A DNA stretch of 64,000 bases from Escherichia coli (GTDB lineage Bacteria; Pseudomonadota; Gammaproteobacteria; Enterobacterales; Enterobacteriaceae). The stretch is from assembly GCF_003334785.1 (NCBI RefSeq), contig NZ_QOWV01000012.1. One strand, 5' to 3'. The position numbers and the translations under genes were made by a program. A model generated the notes under the pieces. It made no database searches and was not told the DNA's origin. It saw only the letters and a list, made by a program, of their open reading frames with translations. Of this stretch, positions 1-9,548 are shown piece by piece; within the stretch, counting starts at the first letter, position 1; each line of letters starts with the position of its first letter.

Positions 1-760
1 CCTGCGCACCAAACCGTGCTGCCAGCGCTTCGGCGGCGCGGGCGAGCAGGGTGGTGTCAACGCCGACGGCGACAAACAGCGCGCCCAGTTCCAGATAGCG
101 TTTTGCCAGTTGCTCATTGGCGATCAGGATCCCCGGCGCTTTGCCCGCTTCGCGGATCTGCACGATCGCCTGCTCAATCGCGGCCTGTACTTCCGGGTGC
201 TGAGGATTACCGGCATAACCCATATCGGCGCTCAGATCCGCCGGGCCGATAAACACGCCGTCGACCCCTTCCACGTCCAGAATCTGCGGTAAGTTCTTCA
301 TTGCCTCACGCGTTTCGATCTGCACCAGCACGCACATTTGATCGTTGGCTTTTTGCAGGTAATCAGGAATACGATTCCAGCGCGAGGCTCGGGCCAGCGC
401 ACTGCCCACACCGCGAATACCGGCGGGGGGATAACGGGTGGCGCGTACCGCTTCACGGGCTTCGTCAGCGTTTTGAACCATCGGCACCAGTAAGGTTTGT
501 GTGCCGACATCCAGCAGTTGTTTGATTTGCACCGGATCGTTCCACGACGGACGTACCACCGGCTGGCTGGGGTAGGGCGCAATCGCCTGTAGCTGGGTGA
601 GCACGGTTTGCACGTTATTCGGCGCGTGCTCACCGTCGATCAATAACCAGTCGAATCCTGCTCCGGCCAGTAACTCTGCGCTGTAGCTGCTACTTAGCCC
701 CAGCCATAATCCGATCTGCGGGCGGCCTGCTTTCAGCGCCGCTTTAAAACTGTTTTCCAT
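1..760 (-). CDS. hpaI: 4-hydroxy-2-oxoheptanedioate aldolase HpaI (class II aldolase); 3-prime end cut by window edge
   Basis: Minus-strand reading from ATG (reverse complement of 758-760) gives [33 protein letters not shown]..., recognised as HpaI/HpcH; RBS GGAGAG just upstream; frame runs off window start (about 9 codons missing). Not in the supplied ORF track because it is truncated. Confidence 0.88.
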
Positions 761-770
761 CGTTCTCTCC

Positions 771-1574
771 TTAAACAAAGCGGCAGCTAATGGAGCCCAT
801 GTTGCCGTAATCGACGTGGAAGGTATCGCCCTTACGCGCCGGAACCGGGCGGGTGAACGAACCGCCGAGAATGATTTGCCCGGCTTCCAGTTGTACGTCA
901 TACGGTGCGAGTTTGTTCGCCAGCCAGGCCACGCCGTTTGCCGGATGATTTAGCACACCAGCGGCGACGCCAGTTTCTTCAATCACGCCATTGCGATACA
1001 TCAGGGCGGAGATCCAACGCAGATCCAGTTCGTCTGGTTTGATCGGACGACCGCCGAGGATCACTCCGGCGTTGGCGGCGTTATCAGAAATGGTGTCGAA
1101 CACTTTGCGCGGGCGCTGGGTTTCCGGATCGATGTTGTGGCAGCGGGCGTCGATCAGCTCCAGCGCCGGGATCACGTAGTCCGTGGCGTTGTAGACGTCG
1201 AACAGCGTGCAGTTTGGCCCACGCAGCGGTTTTGCCAGCACAAAAGCCAGCTCCACTTCAATGCGCGGCACGATAAAGCGATCGGTCGGGATATCGCTGC
1301 CATCGTGGAAGAACATGTCGTCCAGCAATGCACCGTAATCTGGCTCGCTGATTTGTGAGCTGGCCTGCATCGCTTTCGAGGTCAGGCCGATTTTGTGGCC
1401 TTTCAGCGTGCGGCCTTCGGCGATTTTCAGTCGGACCCATTCGCGCTGTACGGCGTAGGCGTCTTCAATGGTGATCTCCGGGTAATCCAGCGAGATCGCG
1501 CGGATCTGTTCACGCTGTTTTTCTGCCTGATCCAGACGCTGGGCGATCAGGGTGTGGGTGTGTTTATCGAACAT
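771..1574 (-). CDS. hpaH: 2-oxo-hept-3-ene-1,7-dioate hydratase HpaH
   Basis: ORF 771..1592 translation matches HpaH/HpcG hydratase; start placed at internal ATG (MFDKHTHTL...) which has an AGGA RBS, giving 267 aa. Confidence 0.9.
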
Positions 1575-1641
1575 AGCGATATCCTGTGGCATTGCCGGAT
1601 GCGGCTGCGCCTTATCATCCAGCCTGGAAGCTGGTGCAAAT

Positions 1642-2022
1642 TTATTTAAACAACGCGTGTACGTTGTTCTGTTTGAAATTCAACGTCGGGTGCAGCTCTG
1701 CAATCTCAAATGAAAGCGCCAGGTAACGGCTCTCCATCAGTGAGGCGAAGTGCGTTTTAATCAGATCAAACAGCATTTCGCCTACTTCCTGACGGCTTTC
1801 CAGACTGCGCCCGCTGCCGATTTTTAGCGTCATATGCACAAAGGCGTAATCGTGCTTGCCATCAGCCATTTGCCAGGTATCGATCCAGTGTGCCCGGCTA
1901 CGTATTCCCCCAAGCGGAAAAATCCCCGTCGCCGCCAGTGCGGTGTTAACACTGGCAAACAGCTCAGGTAAGCGGGCTTCTTGACGAATATTTTCAGTAC
2001 ATTCCACGATAAAGTGCGGCAT
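1642..2022 (-). CDS. hpaF: 5-carboxymethyl-2-hydroxymuconate isomerase HpaF
   Basis: 126-aa [25 protein letters not shown]... recognised as CHM isomerase; position in hpaGEDFHI order. Confidence 0.9.
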
Positions 2023-2031
2023 GGTTTTTCC

Positions 2032-2883
2032 TTACGCGGGAAGCGGGAAAACAGCGTTAACCTGACCAGTGCCAGAGCTTGGGAACAGCTCGGTAATAAA
2101 CTCCACCTTGCCGTCGTATTTATCCCAGCCGAGCATCCCCAGCAGCATCACCGTGTCGTGCATATTGCCTTCGCCGTAGCAGTAGTCGGCGTACTCCGGC
2201 AGCATATTGCAGAACTCTTTGAACTGGCCTTCGCGCCACAGCTTCACCACGCGCTCGTCCATCTGGCGGTCGAACTCGCGGGTGTAGCTGTTCATCCCTT
2301 CTTCTGCACGCTGATCGTCAATAAAGCGGTGCGATAACGAACCGCTGGCAAGGACCGCCACGGTGCCGTCGTACTGTTCGATCGCTTTCAGAATCGCTTC
2401 GCCCAGCTTGCGGCTGTCGGCAAAATCATGAACGGTACAGAATGCGGAGATGGAGACCACTTTGAAGTGCTTGTCTTCATTCATGTAGCGCATCGGCACC
2501 AGCGTGCCGTATTCCAGTTTCAGGCTGGGAATGTTGTGCGTTTTTGCCCGCACGCCGAGCTTTAAGGCTTCATCGGCAATTAGCTGCCCCAACTCCGGGT
2601 TGCCCTCGTAGTTGTAGGTCATGTCACGAATAAAATGCGGCAGCTCGTTACTGGTGTAGACGCCTTCAAAATGGTCTGCACAGTTGATGTGATAAGCACT
2701 GTTGACCAGCCAGTGGGTATCGAAAACGATAATGGTATCGACGCCCATTTCCCGGCAACGCTTGCTGATCTCTTTATGCCCGTCGATCGCACCCTGGCGG
2801 CAACCGTGGTTTTTCCCAGGCAGCTCAGAGAGATACATCGACGGTACGTGCGTGATCTTGGCGGCTAACGCTAACTTACCCAT
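2032..2883 (-). CDS. hpaD: 3,4-dihydroxyphenylacetate (homoprotocatechuate) 2,3-dioxygenase HpaD, extradiol LigB-type
   Basis: 283-aa ORF MGKLALAAKITHVPSMYLSELPGKNHGCRQ...; typical size and sequence of HpaD; operon context. Confidence 0.9.
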   Translation of the reverse strand: MGKLALAAKITHVPSMYLSELPGKNHGCRQGAIDGHKEISKRCREMGVDTIIVFDTHWLVNSAYHINCADHFEGVYTSNELPHFIRDMTYNYEGNPELGQLIADEALKLGVRAKTHNIPSLKLEYGTLVPMRYMNEDKHFKVVSISAFCTVHDFADSRKLGEAILKAIEQYDGTVAVLASGSLSHRFIDDQRAEEGMNSYTREFDRQMDERVVKLWREGQFKEFCNMLPEYADYCYGEGNMHDTVMLLGMLGWDKYDGKVEFITELFPSSGTGQVNAVFPLPA

Positions 2884-2884
2884 A

Positions 2885-4351
2885 TCAGACTCCCCATTTC
2901 GGAATTGGATGGTCGCCCATGGAAATGCAGACGTTCTTCATTTCCGCGAACACTTCGAAGCTGTACTCACCGCCTTCACGCCCGGTGCCGGAGGCTTTTA
3001 CGCCGCCAAATGGCTGGCGCAGGTCACGCACGTTCTGGGTGTTGACGAACACCATGCCAGCTTCAATGCCACGCGCCAGGCGTAACACTTTGCTGACATC
3101 CTGTGTCCAGATGTACGACGCGAGGCCGTACTCCACGTCGTTTGCCAGACGTAAGCCTTCGGCTTCGTCTTTAAACGGCAGCAGGCAGGCGACCGGCCCG
3201 AAAATCTCTTCCTGGGCAACGCGCATACGGTTATCTACGTCCGCCAGCACCGTTGGGCGCAGGAAGTTGCCGCCTTTCAGGTGTGCAGGCAGGTCAGACG
3301 GTTTATCCGGGCCGCCCGCCAGCAGGGTTGCGCCTTCTTCAATGCCGAGACGGATATAGCCGGAGACTTTATCCCAGTGTTGCTGGCTGATAAGCGCCCC
3401 AACCTGGGTATTCGGATCGTTCGGATCGCCCACGCGCAGACGGTTGGCGCGTTCGGCAAAGCGTTTAACGAATTCCGGGTAGATGCTTTGCTGAATAAAG
3501 ATGCGCGAACCGGCGGTGCAGCGCTCGCCGTTGATCGAGAAGATGGTGAACAGGGCGGCGTCCAGCGCGCGTTCAATATCGGCATCTTCAAAAATCAGCA
3601 CCGGCGATTTACCGCCCAGTTCCATGGAGTATTTTTTCAGCCCGGCGTTTTTCATGATGTTGCGCCCGGTGGCCGTACCGCCGGTGAACGACACGGCACG
3701 TACGTCATGATGACGAACCAGCGCATCGCCTGCGGTTGCGCCGTAGCCCTGTACCACGTTCAGCACGCCTGCCGGAATACCGGCTTCCAGCGCCAGCTCA
3801 CCCAGGCGGTCAGCGGTCAGCGGGGAGAGTTCCGACATTTTCAGTACCGCGGTATTGCCCAGCGCCAGACACGGCGCGACCTTCCATGTGGCGGTCATAA
3901 ACGGTACGTTCCACGGCGATACCAGCGCACAAACGCCCACCGGCTGCACCAGCGTGTAGTTGAGCATCTTGTCGTCAACCGGATAGGTCTTGCCGTTCAT
4001 CTGCTGGCAGACTTCCGCGAAAAATTCAAAGTTGTGGGAAGCGCGTGGGATCAACACATTTTTGGTCTGATGGATCGGCAGGCCGGTGTCCGCGGTTTCC
4101 ATCGCGGCGATCTCTGGCACGTTCTGGTCGATCAGATCGCCCAGACGGCGCATCAGGCGCGCACGCTCTTTCATCGGCAGATTGGCCCATTTCGGGAACG
4201 CCTCTTTCGCTGCCGCTACCGCCTGATTGATCTCCGCTTCACCGCCAGAGGCCACATCCGCCAGCACTTCACCCGTTGCCGGATTGGTGGTCTGAAAGTA
4301 GTCGTTACCTGCAACATTTTTGCCGTTGATCCAATGATTTACTTTTTTCAT
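2885..4351 (-). CDS. hpaE: 5-carboxymethyl-2-hydroxymuconate semialdehyde dehydrogenase HpaE (NAD-dependent aldehyde dehydrogenase)
   Basis: 488-aa ORF with aldehyde dehydrogenase hallmarks (ELGGKSP, catalytic Cys region GERCTAGSR); operon context. Confidence 0.92.
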   Translation of the reverse strand: MKKVNHWINGKNVAGNDYFQTTNPATGEVLADVASGGEAEINQAVAAAKEAFPKWANLPMKERARLMRRLGDLIDQNVPEIAAMETADTGLPIHQTKNVLIPRASHNFEFFAEVCQQMNGKTYPVDDKMLNYTLVQPVGVCALVSPWNVPFMTATWKVAPCLALGNTAVLKMSELSPLTADRLGELALEAGIPAGVLNVVQGYGATAGDALVRHHDVRAVSFTGGTATGRNIMKNAGLKKYSMELGGKSPVLIFEDADIERALDAALFTIFSINGERCTAGSRIFIQQSIYPEFVKRFAERANRLRVGDPNDPNTQVGALISQQHWDKVSGYIRLGIEEGATLLAGGPDKPSDLPAHLKGGNFLRPTVLADVDNRMRVAQEEIFGPVACLLPFKDEAEGLRLANDVEYGLASYIWTQDVSKVLRLARGIEAGMVFVNTQNVRDLRQPFGGVKASGTGREGGEYSFEVFAEMKNVCISMGDHPIPKWGV

Positions 4352-5686: not shown

Positions 5687-5908
5687 CTTTTATTCCCGAT
5701 TGCGTAGTTTGGCAAAAGTAAGTGATGTAAATGTGATCTAATTAACAAACTATTTACATTTAAAGATAATAAAATATTAAATATCATTAAGTTAATAAAA
5801 TATCATCAATTTTGATAAAATCAGGAATTGCAGGGACAGCGCAGTCCCGGTAACGTGACGATTAACTGTTTCTATATTAATAATTTTGAATTTTTCAGGG
5901 GAAAGATA

Positions 5909-6355
5909 ATGCACGACTCTCTAACCATTGCGTTGCTCCAGGCGCGAGAAGCGGCGATGAGTTATTTTCGCCCAATCGTTAAACGGCATAATTTGACTGA
6001 GCAACAGTGGCGCATCGTGCGTATTCTGGCGGAAAGCCCATCAATGGATTTTCACGATCTGGCGTATCGTGCCTGCATTTTGCGCCCAAGCCTGACCGGG
6101 ATCCTTACGCGGATGGAACGCGACGGTTTAGTGTTGCGATTAAAGCCGATCAATGATCAGCGGAAGCTCTATATCTCGCTGACCAAAGAGGGGCAGGCGC
6201 TGTATAACCGCGCTCAGACACAGATTGAAGAAGCCTATCGGCAGATTGAAGCTCAGTTTACTGCCGAGAAAATGCAACTGTTAACCCATCTGTTAGAGGA
6301 ATTTATTGCTCTGGGCAATTCCCGACAAGAAGACATCCCGGGCGATAATGAATAA
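5909..6355 (+). CDS. hpaR: MarR-family repressor of the hpa meta operon, HpaR
   Basis: ORF 5828..6355; start placed at ATG giving MHDSLTIALLQAREAAMSYFRPIVKRHNLTEQQWRIVRIL... (148 aa) with winged-helix MarR pattern; divergent from hpaG. Confidence 0.88.
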   Translation: MHDSLTIALLQAREAAMSYFRPIVKRHNLTEQQWRIVRILAESPSMDFHDLAYRACILRPSLTGILTRMERDGLVLRLKPINDQRKLYISLTKEGQALYNRAQTQIEEAYRQIEAQFTAEKMQLLTHLLEEFIALGNSRQEDIPGDNE

Positions 6356-6473: not shown

Positions 6474-8138
6474 ATGTTAAAACGTATCAAGATCGTGACC
6501 AGCTTACTGCTGGTTTTGGCCGTTTTTGGCCTTTTACAACTGACATCAGGCGGTCTGTTCTTTAATGCCTTAAAGAATGACAAAGAAAATTTCACTGTTT
6601 TACAAACCATTCGCCAGCAGCAATCCACGCTGAATGGCAGCTGGGTCGCGTTGTTGCAGACGCGTAACACCCTCAACCGCGCGGGTATCCGCTACATGAT
6701 GGATCAGAATAATATTGGTAGCGGTTCAACCGTTGCTGAGCTGATGCAGAGTGCCAGTATTTCGCTGAAACAGGCGGAAAAAAACTGGGCGGATTACGAA
6801 GCGTTGCCGCGTGACCCGCGTCAGAGCACCGCCGCAGCGGCAGAGATCAAACGTAATTACGATATTTATCACAATGCGCTGGCGGAGCTGATCCAACTGT
6901 TAGGTGCAGGCAAAATCAACGAGTTCTTTGATCAGCCGACTCAGGGATATCAGGACGGTTTCGAGAAGCAGTATGTGGCTTACATGGAACAAAACGATCG
7001 GCTCCATGATATCGCCGTCAGCGATAACAATGCCTCCTACAGCCAGGCGATGTGGATTCTGGTGGGCGTGATGATCGTCGTACTGGCGGTCATCTTCGCC
7101 GTCTGGTTCGGTATTAAAGCCTCGCTGGTAGCGCCAATGAATCGCCTGATTGACAGCATTCGTCATATTGCAGGCGGCGATCTGGTGAAACCGATTGAGG
7201 TGGATGGCTCTAATGAGATGGGGCAACTGGCAGAGAGTTTGCGCCATATGCAGGGAGAGCTGATGCGTACCGTCGGTGATGTGCGCAACGGGGCCAATGC
7301 CATCTATAGCGGTGCCAGCGAAATCGCTACCGGCAATAACGATCTCTCTTCGCGCACCGAGCAACAGGCTGCTTCGCTGGAAGAGACGGCAGCCAGCATG
7401 GAGCAACTGACCGCAACGGTGAAACAGAACGCCGAGAATGCGCGCCAGGCCAGCCACCTGGCGTTAAGTGCTTCTGAAACGGCGCAACGCGGCGGCAAAG
7501 TGGTAGATAACGTGGTGCAGACTATGCGTGATATCTCCACCAGTTCGCAGAAAATCGCCGATATTATCAGCGTAATTGACGGCATTGCCTTCCAGACCAA
7601 TATTCTGGCTTTGAACGCGGCGGTTGAAGCAGCGCGTGCGGGTGAGCAAGGACGTGGTTTTGCGGTGGTTGCGGGAGAAGTGCGTAATCTGGCCCAGCGT
7701 AGCGCCCAGGCGGCTCGTGAAATTAAAAGCCTGATTGAAGACTCGGTGGGGAAAGTGGATGTTGGCTCTACGCTGGTCGAAAGCGCCGGGGAAACAATGG
7801 CGGAGATTGTCAGTGCTGTGACCCGCGTGACGGACATTATGGGCGAAATTGCTTCTGCTTCTGATGAGCAGAGCCGTGGTATCGATCAGGTTGGCTTAGC
7901 GGTTGCTGAGATGGACCGGGTAACTCAACAGAACGCCGCGCTGGTGGAAGAATCTGCCGCCGCCGCCGCCGCGCTGGAAGAGCAGGCCAGTCGCCTGACC
8001 GAAGCAGTGGCAGTGTTCCGGATTCAGCAACAGCAGCAACAGCAGCGTGAAACATCGGCTGTGGTAAAAAACGTGACGCCAGCTACGCCGCGTAAAATGG
8101 CAGTGGCAGATAGCGGGGAGAACTGGGAAACGTTTTAA
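6474..8138 (+). CDS. tsr: methyl-accepting chemotaxis protein I (serine chemoreceptor)
   Basis: 554-aa ORF, N-terminal TM, HAMP, methylation helices, highly conserved MCP signalling domain ([27 protein letters not shown]), C-terminal NWETF pentapeptide. Confidence 0.96.
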
Positions 8139-8186: not shown

Positions 8187-9548
8187 TTAATCTTTACGCG
8201 GGTCGTTGATCGGCTGACGAACCAGGAAGATGTACGCCAGTGCTCCCGCTGCGGTGACGCAACCGCAGATGATTAGTGCCAGACGGAATGAGTGGGTGGT
8301 ATCAACAATAAAACCAGTAATGATCGGCGCAAAAGAGGCGCAGATGAAGCTGGCAAAGTTCTGGATACTGCCCACCGACGCCGTCATGCGAGAAGCAACT
8401 GCGACGTGGATCAAGCCCCAGCAGGATGTTCCGGCAAAGTGAATACAGAACAGTGCCATGCCAATCAGCAGAACCGCCGTCATGGATGTTGTCGCTTGCG
8501 GTACGACCAGCGTAAAGGCGGCAGAACAGAACATCCCGGCAATAATGCAGATCTTACGGCTTTTAATCGGAGCCATTCCCCCTTTGACCAGCCAGTCAGT
8601 AACGTAACCGTTGACCAGCATCCCGGCAGCCCCAAACAGGAAAGGGATAGCCGCCATCAACCCTGTGCTTTTTAAATCCAGGTTATAGGCTGTTTGCAGG
8701 TAACCAGGAAGCCAGGCCAGATACAGCCACGCAGTGTAGTTGATGCCACTGAATCCGAGCATCATTCCCCACATTGTGCGGTTACGGAACAGGCTGCGCC
8801 ATTCGGCAAAACTGAGCGGATCTCGGCGGGCATTGACGCTACCTGCATTGAGATAAGCTTGTTCAACGGCAGTCAGTTCTACGTGCTCGCGGTTGCGATA
8901 GAGCATATACCAGCCAATGGCGAGAAAAATCCCCAGCACACCAATGGTAATAAACATCCCACGCCAGCCCATCACCAGCATCATCGCCGCCAGAATCGGT
9001 GGGCTTACGGCAACGCCAATGGTAGAAGCTGCGTTGAAGAAGCCCATCGGGCGTCCGCGCTCTTTGATGTTGAACCAGTCGTTAATGACTTTTACGCCAC
9101 ATGGGTTCATCGGCGCTTCACCAATCCCCATACCGATACGCACCAACACGAACTGCGTAAAGCTGTGCACCATGCCAGACATGGCCTGGAACAGTGACCA
9201 GAAGAACATCCCCAGTCCCAGCATCAGGCGTGGGCCTTTACGATCCAATAGTGGGCCGCAAGGAAGTTGCGCAATCCCGTAAGCGAGTGAAAACACGGAG
9301 AGCAAAGCGCCGATTTCGGTGGCACTTAATCCCAATTCTTCACGAATCGTTAAATTTGCTACCGACAGCGAACTGCGGTCGAGATAATTGATTACCGCCG
9401 CAAAAAATAATAACAACATGGCGGTGGTTTGAATGCGTTTAATTCGGGTACTGCGTTGAACTAATCCATCTGGTGGCACGGGAATATCTGCCGACGAAGA
9501 TGGAGTAAATGAAGAACGCGGATCGAGGGTGATATTTTCTTTTTCCAC
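8187..9548 (-). CDS. lgoT: MFS transporter, L-galactonate:H+ symporter (YjiZ/LgoT)
   Basis: 453-aa ORF with 12-TM MFS pattern, recognised as E. coli YjiZ/LgoT; apparent GTG start. Confidence 0.9.
   Translation of the reverse strand: MEKENITLDPRSSFTPSSSADIPVPPDGLVQRSTRIKRIQTTAMLLLFFAAVINYLDRSSLSVANLTIREELGLSATEIGALLSVFSLAYGIAQLPCGPLLDRKGPRLMLGLGMFFWSLFQAMSGMVHSFTQFVLVRIGMGIGEAPMNPCGVKVINDWFNIKERGRPMGFFNAASTIGVAVSPPILAAMMLVMGWRGMFITIGVLGIFLAIGWYMLYRNREHVELTAVEQAYLNAGSVNARRDPLSFAEWRSLFRNRTMWGMMLGFSGINYTAWLYLAWLPGYLQTAYNLDLKSTGLMAAIPFLFGAAGMLVNGYVTDWLVKGGMAPIKSRKICIIAGMFCSAAFTLVVPQATTSMTAVLLIGMALFCIHFAGTSCWGLIHVAVASRMTASVGSIQNFASFICASFAPIITGFIVDTTHSFRLALIICGCVTAAGALAYIFLVRQPINDPRKD

Follow-up and report, generated by a model that had tools for sequence, protein, structure and literature searches.

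Length polymorphism of an in-frame 9-bp tandem repeat in the Escherichia coli serine chemoreceptor gene tsr

The glutamine tract near the C-terminus of the E. coli serine chemoreceptor Tsr is encoded by an in-frame coding variable-number tandem repeat (VNTR), which is polymorphic in length and changes in steps of 9 bp. The tract was analyzed in the window, a stretch of E. coli DNA of 64,000 nucleotides, and in other E. coli strains, where alleles with 4, 7, 10 and 13 Gln codons were found; the length polymorphism that the earlier note had proposed is thereby established. We consider it likely that the element is a short 9-bp VNTR at the 5' end of the tether region, with 7 Gln as the ancestral state, recurrent slippage as the source of the other lengths and nearly neutral consequences for the receptor.

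The gene is located at positions 6474–8138 on the plus strand and encodes a protein of 554 aa followed by a stop codon. It was identified as tsr (serine chemoreceptor, methyl-accepting chemotaxis protein I) using the ORF list, NCBIfam models and its identity with the K-12 gene. The NCBIfam Tsr equivalog PRK15041 scored 1221.9 bits against a cut-off of 947, with model positions 1–554 of 554 covered, and the Tar model scored 749 bits on the same ORF, under its cut-off of 900. Matching genes in 5,343 genomes carry the RefSeq label tsr, which together with the equivalog score confirms the gene name proposed earlier. The Tsr of the window is identical to the Tsr of the K-12 derivative XL1-Blue at 547 of 554 positions (99%), and the sole gap in this BLASTP alignment, of 3 residues, lies inside the Gln tract. 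The gene hpaR is located upstream of tsr in the window, and a gene encoding an lgoT-type MFS transporter is located downstream, in the position of lgoT in K-12. An antisense ORF (positions 7837–8055, 72 aa) was dismissed as a mechanical ORF within a conserved sense gene.

Positions 8025–8045 read CAGCAACAGCAGCAACAGCAG, in frame within the ORF 6474–8138 (plus strand). The codons are CAG CAA CAG CAG CAA CAG CAG, corresponding to Gln518–Gln524 of the 554-aa Tsr, so the seven-Gln tract described in the earlier note was confirmed by direct reading and translation. Tandem Repeats Finder (TRF) detected at 8025–8046 (plus strand) a perfect tandem repeat with a period of 9, 2.4 copies and 100% matches, the unit being CAGCAACAG; this repeat is the variable-number element. 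The first unit (CAG CAA CAG) was located at 8025–8033 (plus strand) by direct reading and TRF. The second unit (CAG CAA CAG) was located at 8034–8042 (plus strand) by comparison with the alleles L001, L004 and L005 and from the 3-residue BLASTP gap. The 4-Gln alleles of the K-12 type are without one unit's worth of this repeat. Only one run of seven CAR codons is present in the 64-kb window, and none was found in 100 dinucleotide-preserving shuffles.

The tract had been taken for a trinucleotide repeat, and this part of the earlier description does not hold: read as a period-3 repeat, 8025–8046 gives matches of only 78%, and all alleles differ by whole 9-bp units. The perfect self-match at offset 9 amounts to 4 nt in the 4-Gln allele, 13 nt in the 7-Gln allele and 22 nt in the 10-Gln allele. 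At offset 3, the self-match in the 7-Gln allele is at most about 5 nt because of the CAA interruptions. The difference between the two offsets explains why the variation occurs in whole 9-bp units.

The 4-Gln allele (CAG CAA CAG CAG, that is, one copy of CAGCAACAG plus CAG; Tsr of 551 aa) was found in K-12 XL1-Blue, MB22 and O18; these tracts and those of the longer alleles named below were read directly from sequence. The length of 551 aa given for the K-12 Tsr in the earlier note is thus correct, and the possibility that the length difference arises elsewhere in the protein does not apply, as the whole 3-aa difference from K-12 lies inside the tract. The 7-Gln allele (two copies plus CAG) was found in the window (554 aa) and in 3PT, whose Tsr of 543 aa also carries a 33-bp deletion. 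The 10-Gln allele (three copies plus CAG; 557 aa) was found in 23AR0806, HS, LF82 and 94-3024, and the 13-Gln allele (four copies plus CAG; 560 aa) in RM14723. Copy numbers of 1.3, 2.3, 3.3 and 4.3 correspond to 4, 7, 10 and 13 Gln, respectively, strains differing by whole-unit steps.

To estimate allele frequencies, a 199-bp segment across the tract was searched for in complete E. coli genomes, and matches were found in 5,343 of 5,426. Of 60 records sampled at even spacing, 45 had a match of 199 bp, 13 a match of 190 bp and 1 a match of 208 bp. The identity bands obtained when the segment was searched in its 7-Gln, 10-Gln and 4-Gln versions agreed with one another. The tabulation of tract length suggested in the earlier note gave the following values for about 5,345 complete E. 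coli genomes, as estimates from BLAST identity bands and 60-row samples rather than direct readings of each genome. The majority allele is 7 Gln (about 4,050 genomes, about 76%), followed by 4 Gln (about 1,210 genomes, about 23%, a count inflated by K-12 laboratory derivatives), 10 Gln (about 85 genomes, about 1.6%) and 13 Gln (3 genomes, under 0.1%). A 1-Gln allele was found in none of these approximately 5,345 genomes.

A length-neutral scan of metagenome contigs was performed with the pattern GTGGCAGTGTTCCGGATT-N{9,39}-CGTGAA, which allowed spacers of 9–39 bp; the sample was not random. Among the 120 matching contigs listed, 86 contained 7 codons, 31 contained 4 and 3 contained 10, and no other tract lengths were present. 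No alleles longer or shorter by one or two codons were found in about 180 sampled genome rows, and targeted short-flank queries for 8 Gln and 5 Gln gave no exact or near-exact match in E. coli genomes. Tracts of 6 and 9 Gln were checked only indirectly, via the metagenome scan; two-piece BLAST alignments to genomes with 10 and 13 Gln filled the top ranks.

Judging from the sequences compared, 7 Gln is the ancestral state in E. coli and the 4 Gln of K-12 is a derived 9-bp deletion, because 7 Gln is the majority state, the outgroups are collinear with it and parsimony places it at the root. The 10-Gln and 13-Gln alleles are accordingly read as duplications. Among the matches listed in the outgroup scan of genomes there was none from E. 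albertii, E. fergusonii or Salmonella; a divergent Escherichia allele (L038) and sequences from other genera served as outgroups. The Tsr orthologues of Leclercia, Enterobacter, Citrobacter, Kluyvera and others are 553–557 aa long. In several outgroups (Leclercia, Enterobacter, Citrobacter and L038), a segment of 7 residues lies between the conserved FRI and an Arg residue, for example, QQDQQKA-R, QQEQQKA-R and QHDQQRA-R. L038 reads ATA CAG CAA GCG CAA CAG CGT CAG CAT GAA (IQQAQQRQHE) and encodes a 554-aa protein collinear with the 7-Gln form; its 3' end aligned with the 7-Gln alleles without gaps and with 83.8% matches. A search of E. coli genomes with the 3' end of L038 revealed no lineages intermediate to it.

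A neighbor-joining tree of 70 full-length tsr genes was constructed with the tract removed and was rooted on L038. The parsimony root state on this tree was 7 Gln. Deletions only from 7 Gln together with one duplication required 10 steps, which was the minimum, and expansion only from 4 Gln required 19 steps. The earlier note had regarded the 7-Gln tract of the window as a 3-codon expansion of the K-12 state; the root state, the collinear outgroups and the step counts reverse this direction.

We infer from these alleles that recurrent slippage by one unit is the main source of the variation and that recombination also moves alleles between backgrounds. Different lengths were found on nearly identical tsr backgrounds, which argues for recurrent replication slippage. 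Over 1,644 nt, the 4-Gln allele L082 differs from the 7-Gln allele L104 at 2 positions, the nearest of which is 1,020 bp from the tract. The 4-Gln alleles L005 and L100 differ from the 7-Gln allele L083 at 3 positions, the 10-Gln allele of 94-3024 differs from the 7-Gln allele L121 at 1 position, and the 10-Gln allele of HS differs from the 7-Gln allele L152 at 3 positions, over the same length in each case. The alleles of HS and 94-3024 are 25–39 nt apart from other 10-Gln alleles. The 13-Gln allele is nested within one 10-Gln lineage, as predicted by a stepwise process.

It could instead be supposed that the alleles are few and old, that 4, 7 and 10 Gln each arose once or twice and were spread by homologous recombination, and that the tract is not especially mutable. 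Tract length does carry a phylogenetic signal (10 changes on the tree against a mean of 22.4 with shuffled tip states), which agrees with such a history, and it is also homoplasious on the tsr tree. Recombination is clearly active: some SNP sites in tsr show 8–11 homoplasies on the gene tree. On an enlarged single-gene neighbor-joining tree, from a set enriched for long alleles, the tract showed 15 apparent changes and individual SNP sites as many as 11, and recombination within tsr is therefore substantial. The 15 changes of the tract compare with 0.83 per average four-fold degenerate site, an approximately 18-fold ratio that is a rough figure, since recombination inflates both numbers; parsimony counts on a single-gene neighbor-joining tree are inflated by recombination and by tree error. 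Parsimony alone was ruled out as proof of hypermutability by the SNP sites with 11 changes on the same tree, and the argument for recurrence therefore rests on the near-identical backgrounds. In these, alleles of different length are only 1–3 of 1,644 flanking positions apart and show no nearby donor-type SNPs, so that an imported patch would need to be very short and to come from an otherwise identical donor. The nesting of the 13-Gln allele inside one 10-Gln lineage is stepwise, and every length falls on the 9-bp series. Spread of a few old alleles is thus considered unlikely as the explanation of the whole pattern, and part of the apparent recurrence may be allele shuffling.

Two further observations concern allele backgrounds. 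Downstream of tsr, either lgoT or TRAP-transporter genes are located, and each type was seen with each of the 4-Gln, 7-Gln and 10-Gln alleles. A Gln-to-His variant of the tract (CAA CAT CAG) was considered as a marker of de novo deletion and proved indecisive: among the metagenome contigs listed there was only one 4-codon contig with CAT (L120), and its flanking haplotype was different from that of the 7-codon CAT contigs.

Recurrent slippage would begin with misalignment of the nascent strand by one 9-bp unit during replication. In the 7-Gln allele, the 13 bp of offset-9 homology would stabilize this misalignment, and only about 5 bp would be available for a one-codon slip. As a result, precisely three Gln codons would be lost or duplicated. 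Deletions from 7 to 4 Gln appear to have arisen repeatedly, and each could hardly be reversed, since the offset-9 homology is then down to 4 bp. Duplications, first to 10 Gln and then from 10 to 13 Gln, appear to have been less frequent than deletions. Every change is in frame, and therefore the length of Tsr would be altered with no on/off switching. The data indicate that the instability of the tract is only mild. The rates of contingency loci are far above it.

The Gln tract is predicted to open the disordered tether that carries the C-terminal NWETF pentapeptide. The flexible tether comprises Ile517–Glu549 (positions 8022–8120, plus strand), i.e., 33 residues in the window and 30 in K-12, and was delimited using the AlphaFold 2 (AF2) model, PMC10561060 and the linkers of the outgroups. 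NWETF (residues 550–554, positions 8121–8135, plus strand) was identified from the translation and from its conservation in homologues, its function being taken from PMC7390727 and PMC8609364. Across 36 homologues, N550 and W551 are at least 90% conserved and E552, T553 and F554 are invariant, while the linker sequence is unconserved among orthologues and genera. In the AF2 model, based on 36 homologues, the last confident helix comprises residues 428–512, and residues 520–548, which extend nearly to the C-terminus, have pLDDT values below 50. A short helix of low confidence (residues 519–526) overlaps the Gln run. The tract directly follows the last signaling-domain helix (R516) and lies 25 residues ahead of NWETF. 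In PMC10561060, R516 is given as the tethering point of Tsr, and the K-12 flexible chain of 30 aa starts from I517, where the tract begins. The AF2 model and this paper support the earlier placement of the tract in the flexible linker before NWETF, and more exactly at its start. As far as sequence and model can tell, the protein is a pentapeptide-tethered chemoreceptor, with an xWxxF motif (NWETF) ending an unstructured linker of about 30–35 residues.

Tether length is 30 residues in the 4-Gln allele, 33 in the 7-Gln allele, 36 in the 10-Gln allele and 39 in the 13-Gln allele. Tract length would thus have a slight effect on how far the tethered adaptation enzymes reach and on their local concentration profile. 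The suggestion in the earlier note that linker length could influence CheR/CheB tethering is reasonable in principle, given the behavior of Tar linker mutants. In PMC10561060, Tar variants with chains of 22, 29, 34 and 46 aa were compared, and linker length altered adaptation kinetics; the concentration peak of tethered CheR in Tar moved by 0.128 ± 0.048 nm per linker residue, or by 0.233 ± 0.100 nm per residue in an alternative fit. Extrapolated to Tsr, this gives a predicted CheR peak shift of about 0.4 nm for one 9-bp step (0.4–0.7 nm over both fits), out of roughly 10 nm. In functional pentapeptide receptors, linker length ranges over 29–91 residues and the linker sequence is not conserved (bioRxiv 10.1101/2024.03.07.583918). 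As Gln is uncharged, length changes in the tract leave the conserved charge pattern of the linker as it is. Because of the small step, the wide range of tolerated linkers and the unchanged charge pattern, the functional effect of one step is probably small and nearly neutral.

A selective explanation was also weighed and appears very unlikely. It holds that the 9-bp repeat is a selected tuning device, with which lineages have time and again changed the length of the Tsr tether in either direction, thereby adjusting how far CheR and CheB reach and how fast and precise adaptation is. The length classes would then be kept by selection according to niche, for serine and other Tsr-mediated taxis. 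The changed adaptation behavior of the engineered Tar variants is in line with this, as are the continued dominance of 7 Gln, although deletion looks mechanistically easy and nearly irreversible, the failure to find a 1-Gln allele and the retention of Tsr at 553–557 aa in close relatives. Were tuning true, K-12 would be an atypical short-tether variant, with adaptation kinetics measurably unlike those of most wild E. coli. The breadth of linkers in working receptors and the small predicted shift of the CheR peak both count against tuning, and the host and source labels of the listed 4-Gln, 7-Gln and 10-Gln genomes, taken as listed only, are mixed. Serine taxis is fully competent in K-12, which has the 4-Gln allele, and this also speaks against adaptive tuning. 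That the tract is a contingency locus subject to phase variation, or an artefact of sequencing or assembly, is effectively refuted; nothing speaks for either beyond a simple repeat within a gene. All lengths are 9-bp multiples that keep the frame, tsr is annotated as an intact CDS, the 21-bp repeat is far shorter than a sequencing read, and the same alleles are found both in metagenome assemblies and in genomes finished independently of one another, which number in the thousands.

A comparison with known systems places the VNTR within a known receptor element. The C-terminal flexible linker and NWETF tether of the high-abundance receptors Tsr and Tar are reportedly the subject of the work of Bartelli and Hazelbauer (2011) and of Li and Hazelbauer (2006). 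The tract lies within this element as characterized in PMC10561060 and PMC7390727 and is likewise predicted to be disordered. However, the 30 aa of K-12 is used as the Tsr value in that literature, whereas the species-typical value found here is 33 aa, and a natural series of 30, 33, 36 and 39 aa is made by a DNA repeat. No prior description of the tract polymorphism was found in the searchable literature, and PMC10561060 quotes the K-12 sequence.

With the bacterial in-frame coding VNTRs used in MLVA typing, the tsr repeat shares perfect head-to-tail copies, whole-unit variation among strains, a preserved reading frame and occurrence on several backgrounds. It differs from them in that the array is very short (1.3–4.3 copies), has a low inferred rate, is stable enough to serve as a clade marker and lies in a cytoplasmic signaling protein rather than a surface protein. 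Eukaryotic CAG/polyglutamine repeats resemble it in the CAG and CAA codons and in a pure Gln run beside a coiled-coil helix. Unlike them, the tsr tract has CAA interruptions and no long pure CAG run, and therefore slippage would proceed in 9-bp and not 3-bp steps; the tract also comprises only 4–13 codons, and nothing points to runaway expansion. Both here and in the contingency loci of Haemophilus, Neisseria and Campylobacter, the presumed mechanism is slipped-strand mispairing at a repeat inside a gene, but the tsr unit is a multiple of three and gives no on/off switching, copies are far fewer and the rate would be far lower. The shift of frame or promoter spacing that defines phase variation was not seen, all alleles being in frame with an intact tsr.

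The main value of the finding lies in a caution about K-12 as a reference and in the natural allelic series. Quantitative studies of Tsr have nearly all been made with the K-12 allele, whose 30-residue tether is both derived and in the minority. In about three quarters of E. coli, the Tsr tether has 33 residues, close to the 34 of Tar. In PMC10561060, the shorter linker of Tsr (30 aa, compared with 34 aa in Tar) was argued to fit the smaller distances from the methylation sites to the tethering point; this argument is weakened because it is built on the minority K-12 allele. The natural 30-, 33-, 36- and 39-residue forms are a set of variants on which the tethered-particle model of CheR action could readily be tested. 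For annotation and typing, the tsr tract is a small clade-informative indel that should not be taken for an error, and it is because of the tract-length alleles that Tsr records of 551, 554, 557 and 560 aa exist. Apart from these points, the tract is an ordinary short in-frame coding VNTR of a familiar kind.

Other length variants were observed in the methylation helix of Tsr. TRF detected a (GCC)5.7 repeat at 7956–7972 (plus strand), which encodes most of the Ala495–500 run. This (GCC)n run is located 50–70 bp upstream of the Gln tract, between the methylation sites E493 and E502. It is also polymorphic in length, in steps of one codon, and this polymorphism is rarer than that of the Gln tract. 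Among the 120 metagenome contigs listed, 5 Ala was found in 8 and 4 Ala in 3, and the 5-Ala allele was found in at least 5 complete genomes. In addition, the tsr gene of 3PT has a 33-bp in-frame deletion between GCCGCGCTGG direct repeats (7935–7944 and 7968–7977), with a loss of 11 residues. Because they lie inside the methylation helix, the changes in the Ala run and the 33-bp deletion may matter more to function than the Gln tract.

In addition to the glutamine tract, a second length polymorphism of tsr was observed, namely a run of alanine codons (Ala495–500 of Tsr) that changes in steps of one codon. This run is encoded by a GCC repeat of 5.7 copies (window position 7956–7972) and is located between the Tsr methylation sites E493 and E502. 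Among the metagenome contigs listed, the majority of alleles contained six alanine residues, and alleles with five and four alanine residues were found in 8 and 3 of the 120 contigs, respectively. The five-alanine allele was also found in at least five complete genomes (SCU-172, OZ547117, MB49, UTAK-1 and OkiPb01711). An insertion or deletion of one residue within the methylation helix of Tsr would shift the helical register downstream of it.

A larger change was revealed in the tsr gene of the strain 3PT (locus L003, position 141–1772), in which 33 bp were deleted in frame between 10-bp direct repeats GCCGCGCTGG (window positions 7935–7944 and 7968–7977). As a result, 11 residues were lost, including one methylation-site context, and the encoded Tsr is 543 aa long. 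The same deletion is probably present in the strain 500111, since the alignment for this strain begins at query base 28. One more repeat, a 10-bp tandem repeat TTTTGGCCGT (2.2 copies, 91% matches; window position 6514–6535), was found within the region encoding the first transmembrane helix of Tsr. The gain or loss of one 10-bp unit here would put tsr out of frame.

Substitutions were found in the glutamine tract itself. Of the 120 metagenome contigs listed, 11 (L108, L127, L136, L137, L144, L145, L148, L159, L171, L190 and L191) contained a Gln-to-His variant of the seven-codon tract, CAG CAA CAG CAG CAA CAT CAG, and in six of these 11 the five-alanine allele was found as well. The four-codon form CAG CAA CAT CAG was found among these 120 contigs in a single one, L120, and the flanking haplotype of this contig differs from that of the contigs with the seven-codon variant. 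Furthermore, the translated sequence of two metagenome contigs (from L080–L199) was disrupted shortly before the tract by stop codons or frameshifts. A larger in-frame change, VTQHAAALEEQ, was found in one contig of this set. These three contigs could represent tsr pseudogenes or low-coverage assembly errors.

The surroundings of tsr (window positions 5828–6355 and 8187–9548) were found to differ among strains when the window and the loci L001–L005 and L200–L203 from complete genomes were considered. The hpaR gene is located directly upstream of tsr in the window, HS, MB22 and 3PT, and no hpaR was found within 134 bp upstream of tsr in K-12. Downstream of tsr, lgoT is located in the window, K-12, HS and 94-3024, and a TRAP-transporter permease pair is located in 23AR0806, O18, LF82, RM14723, MB22 and 3PT.
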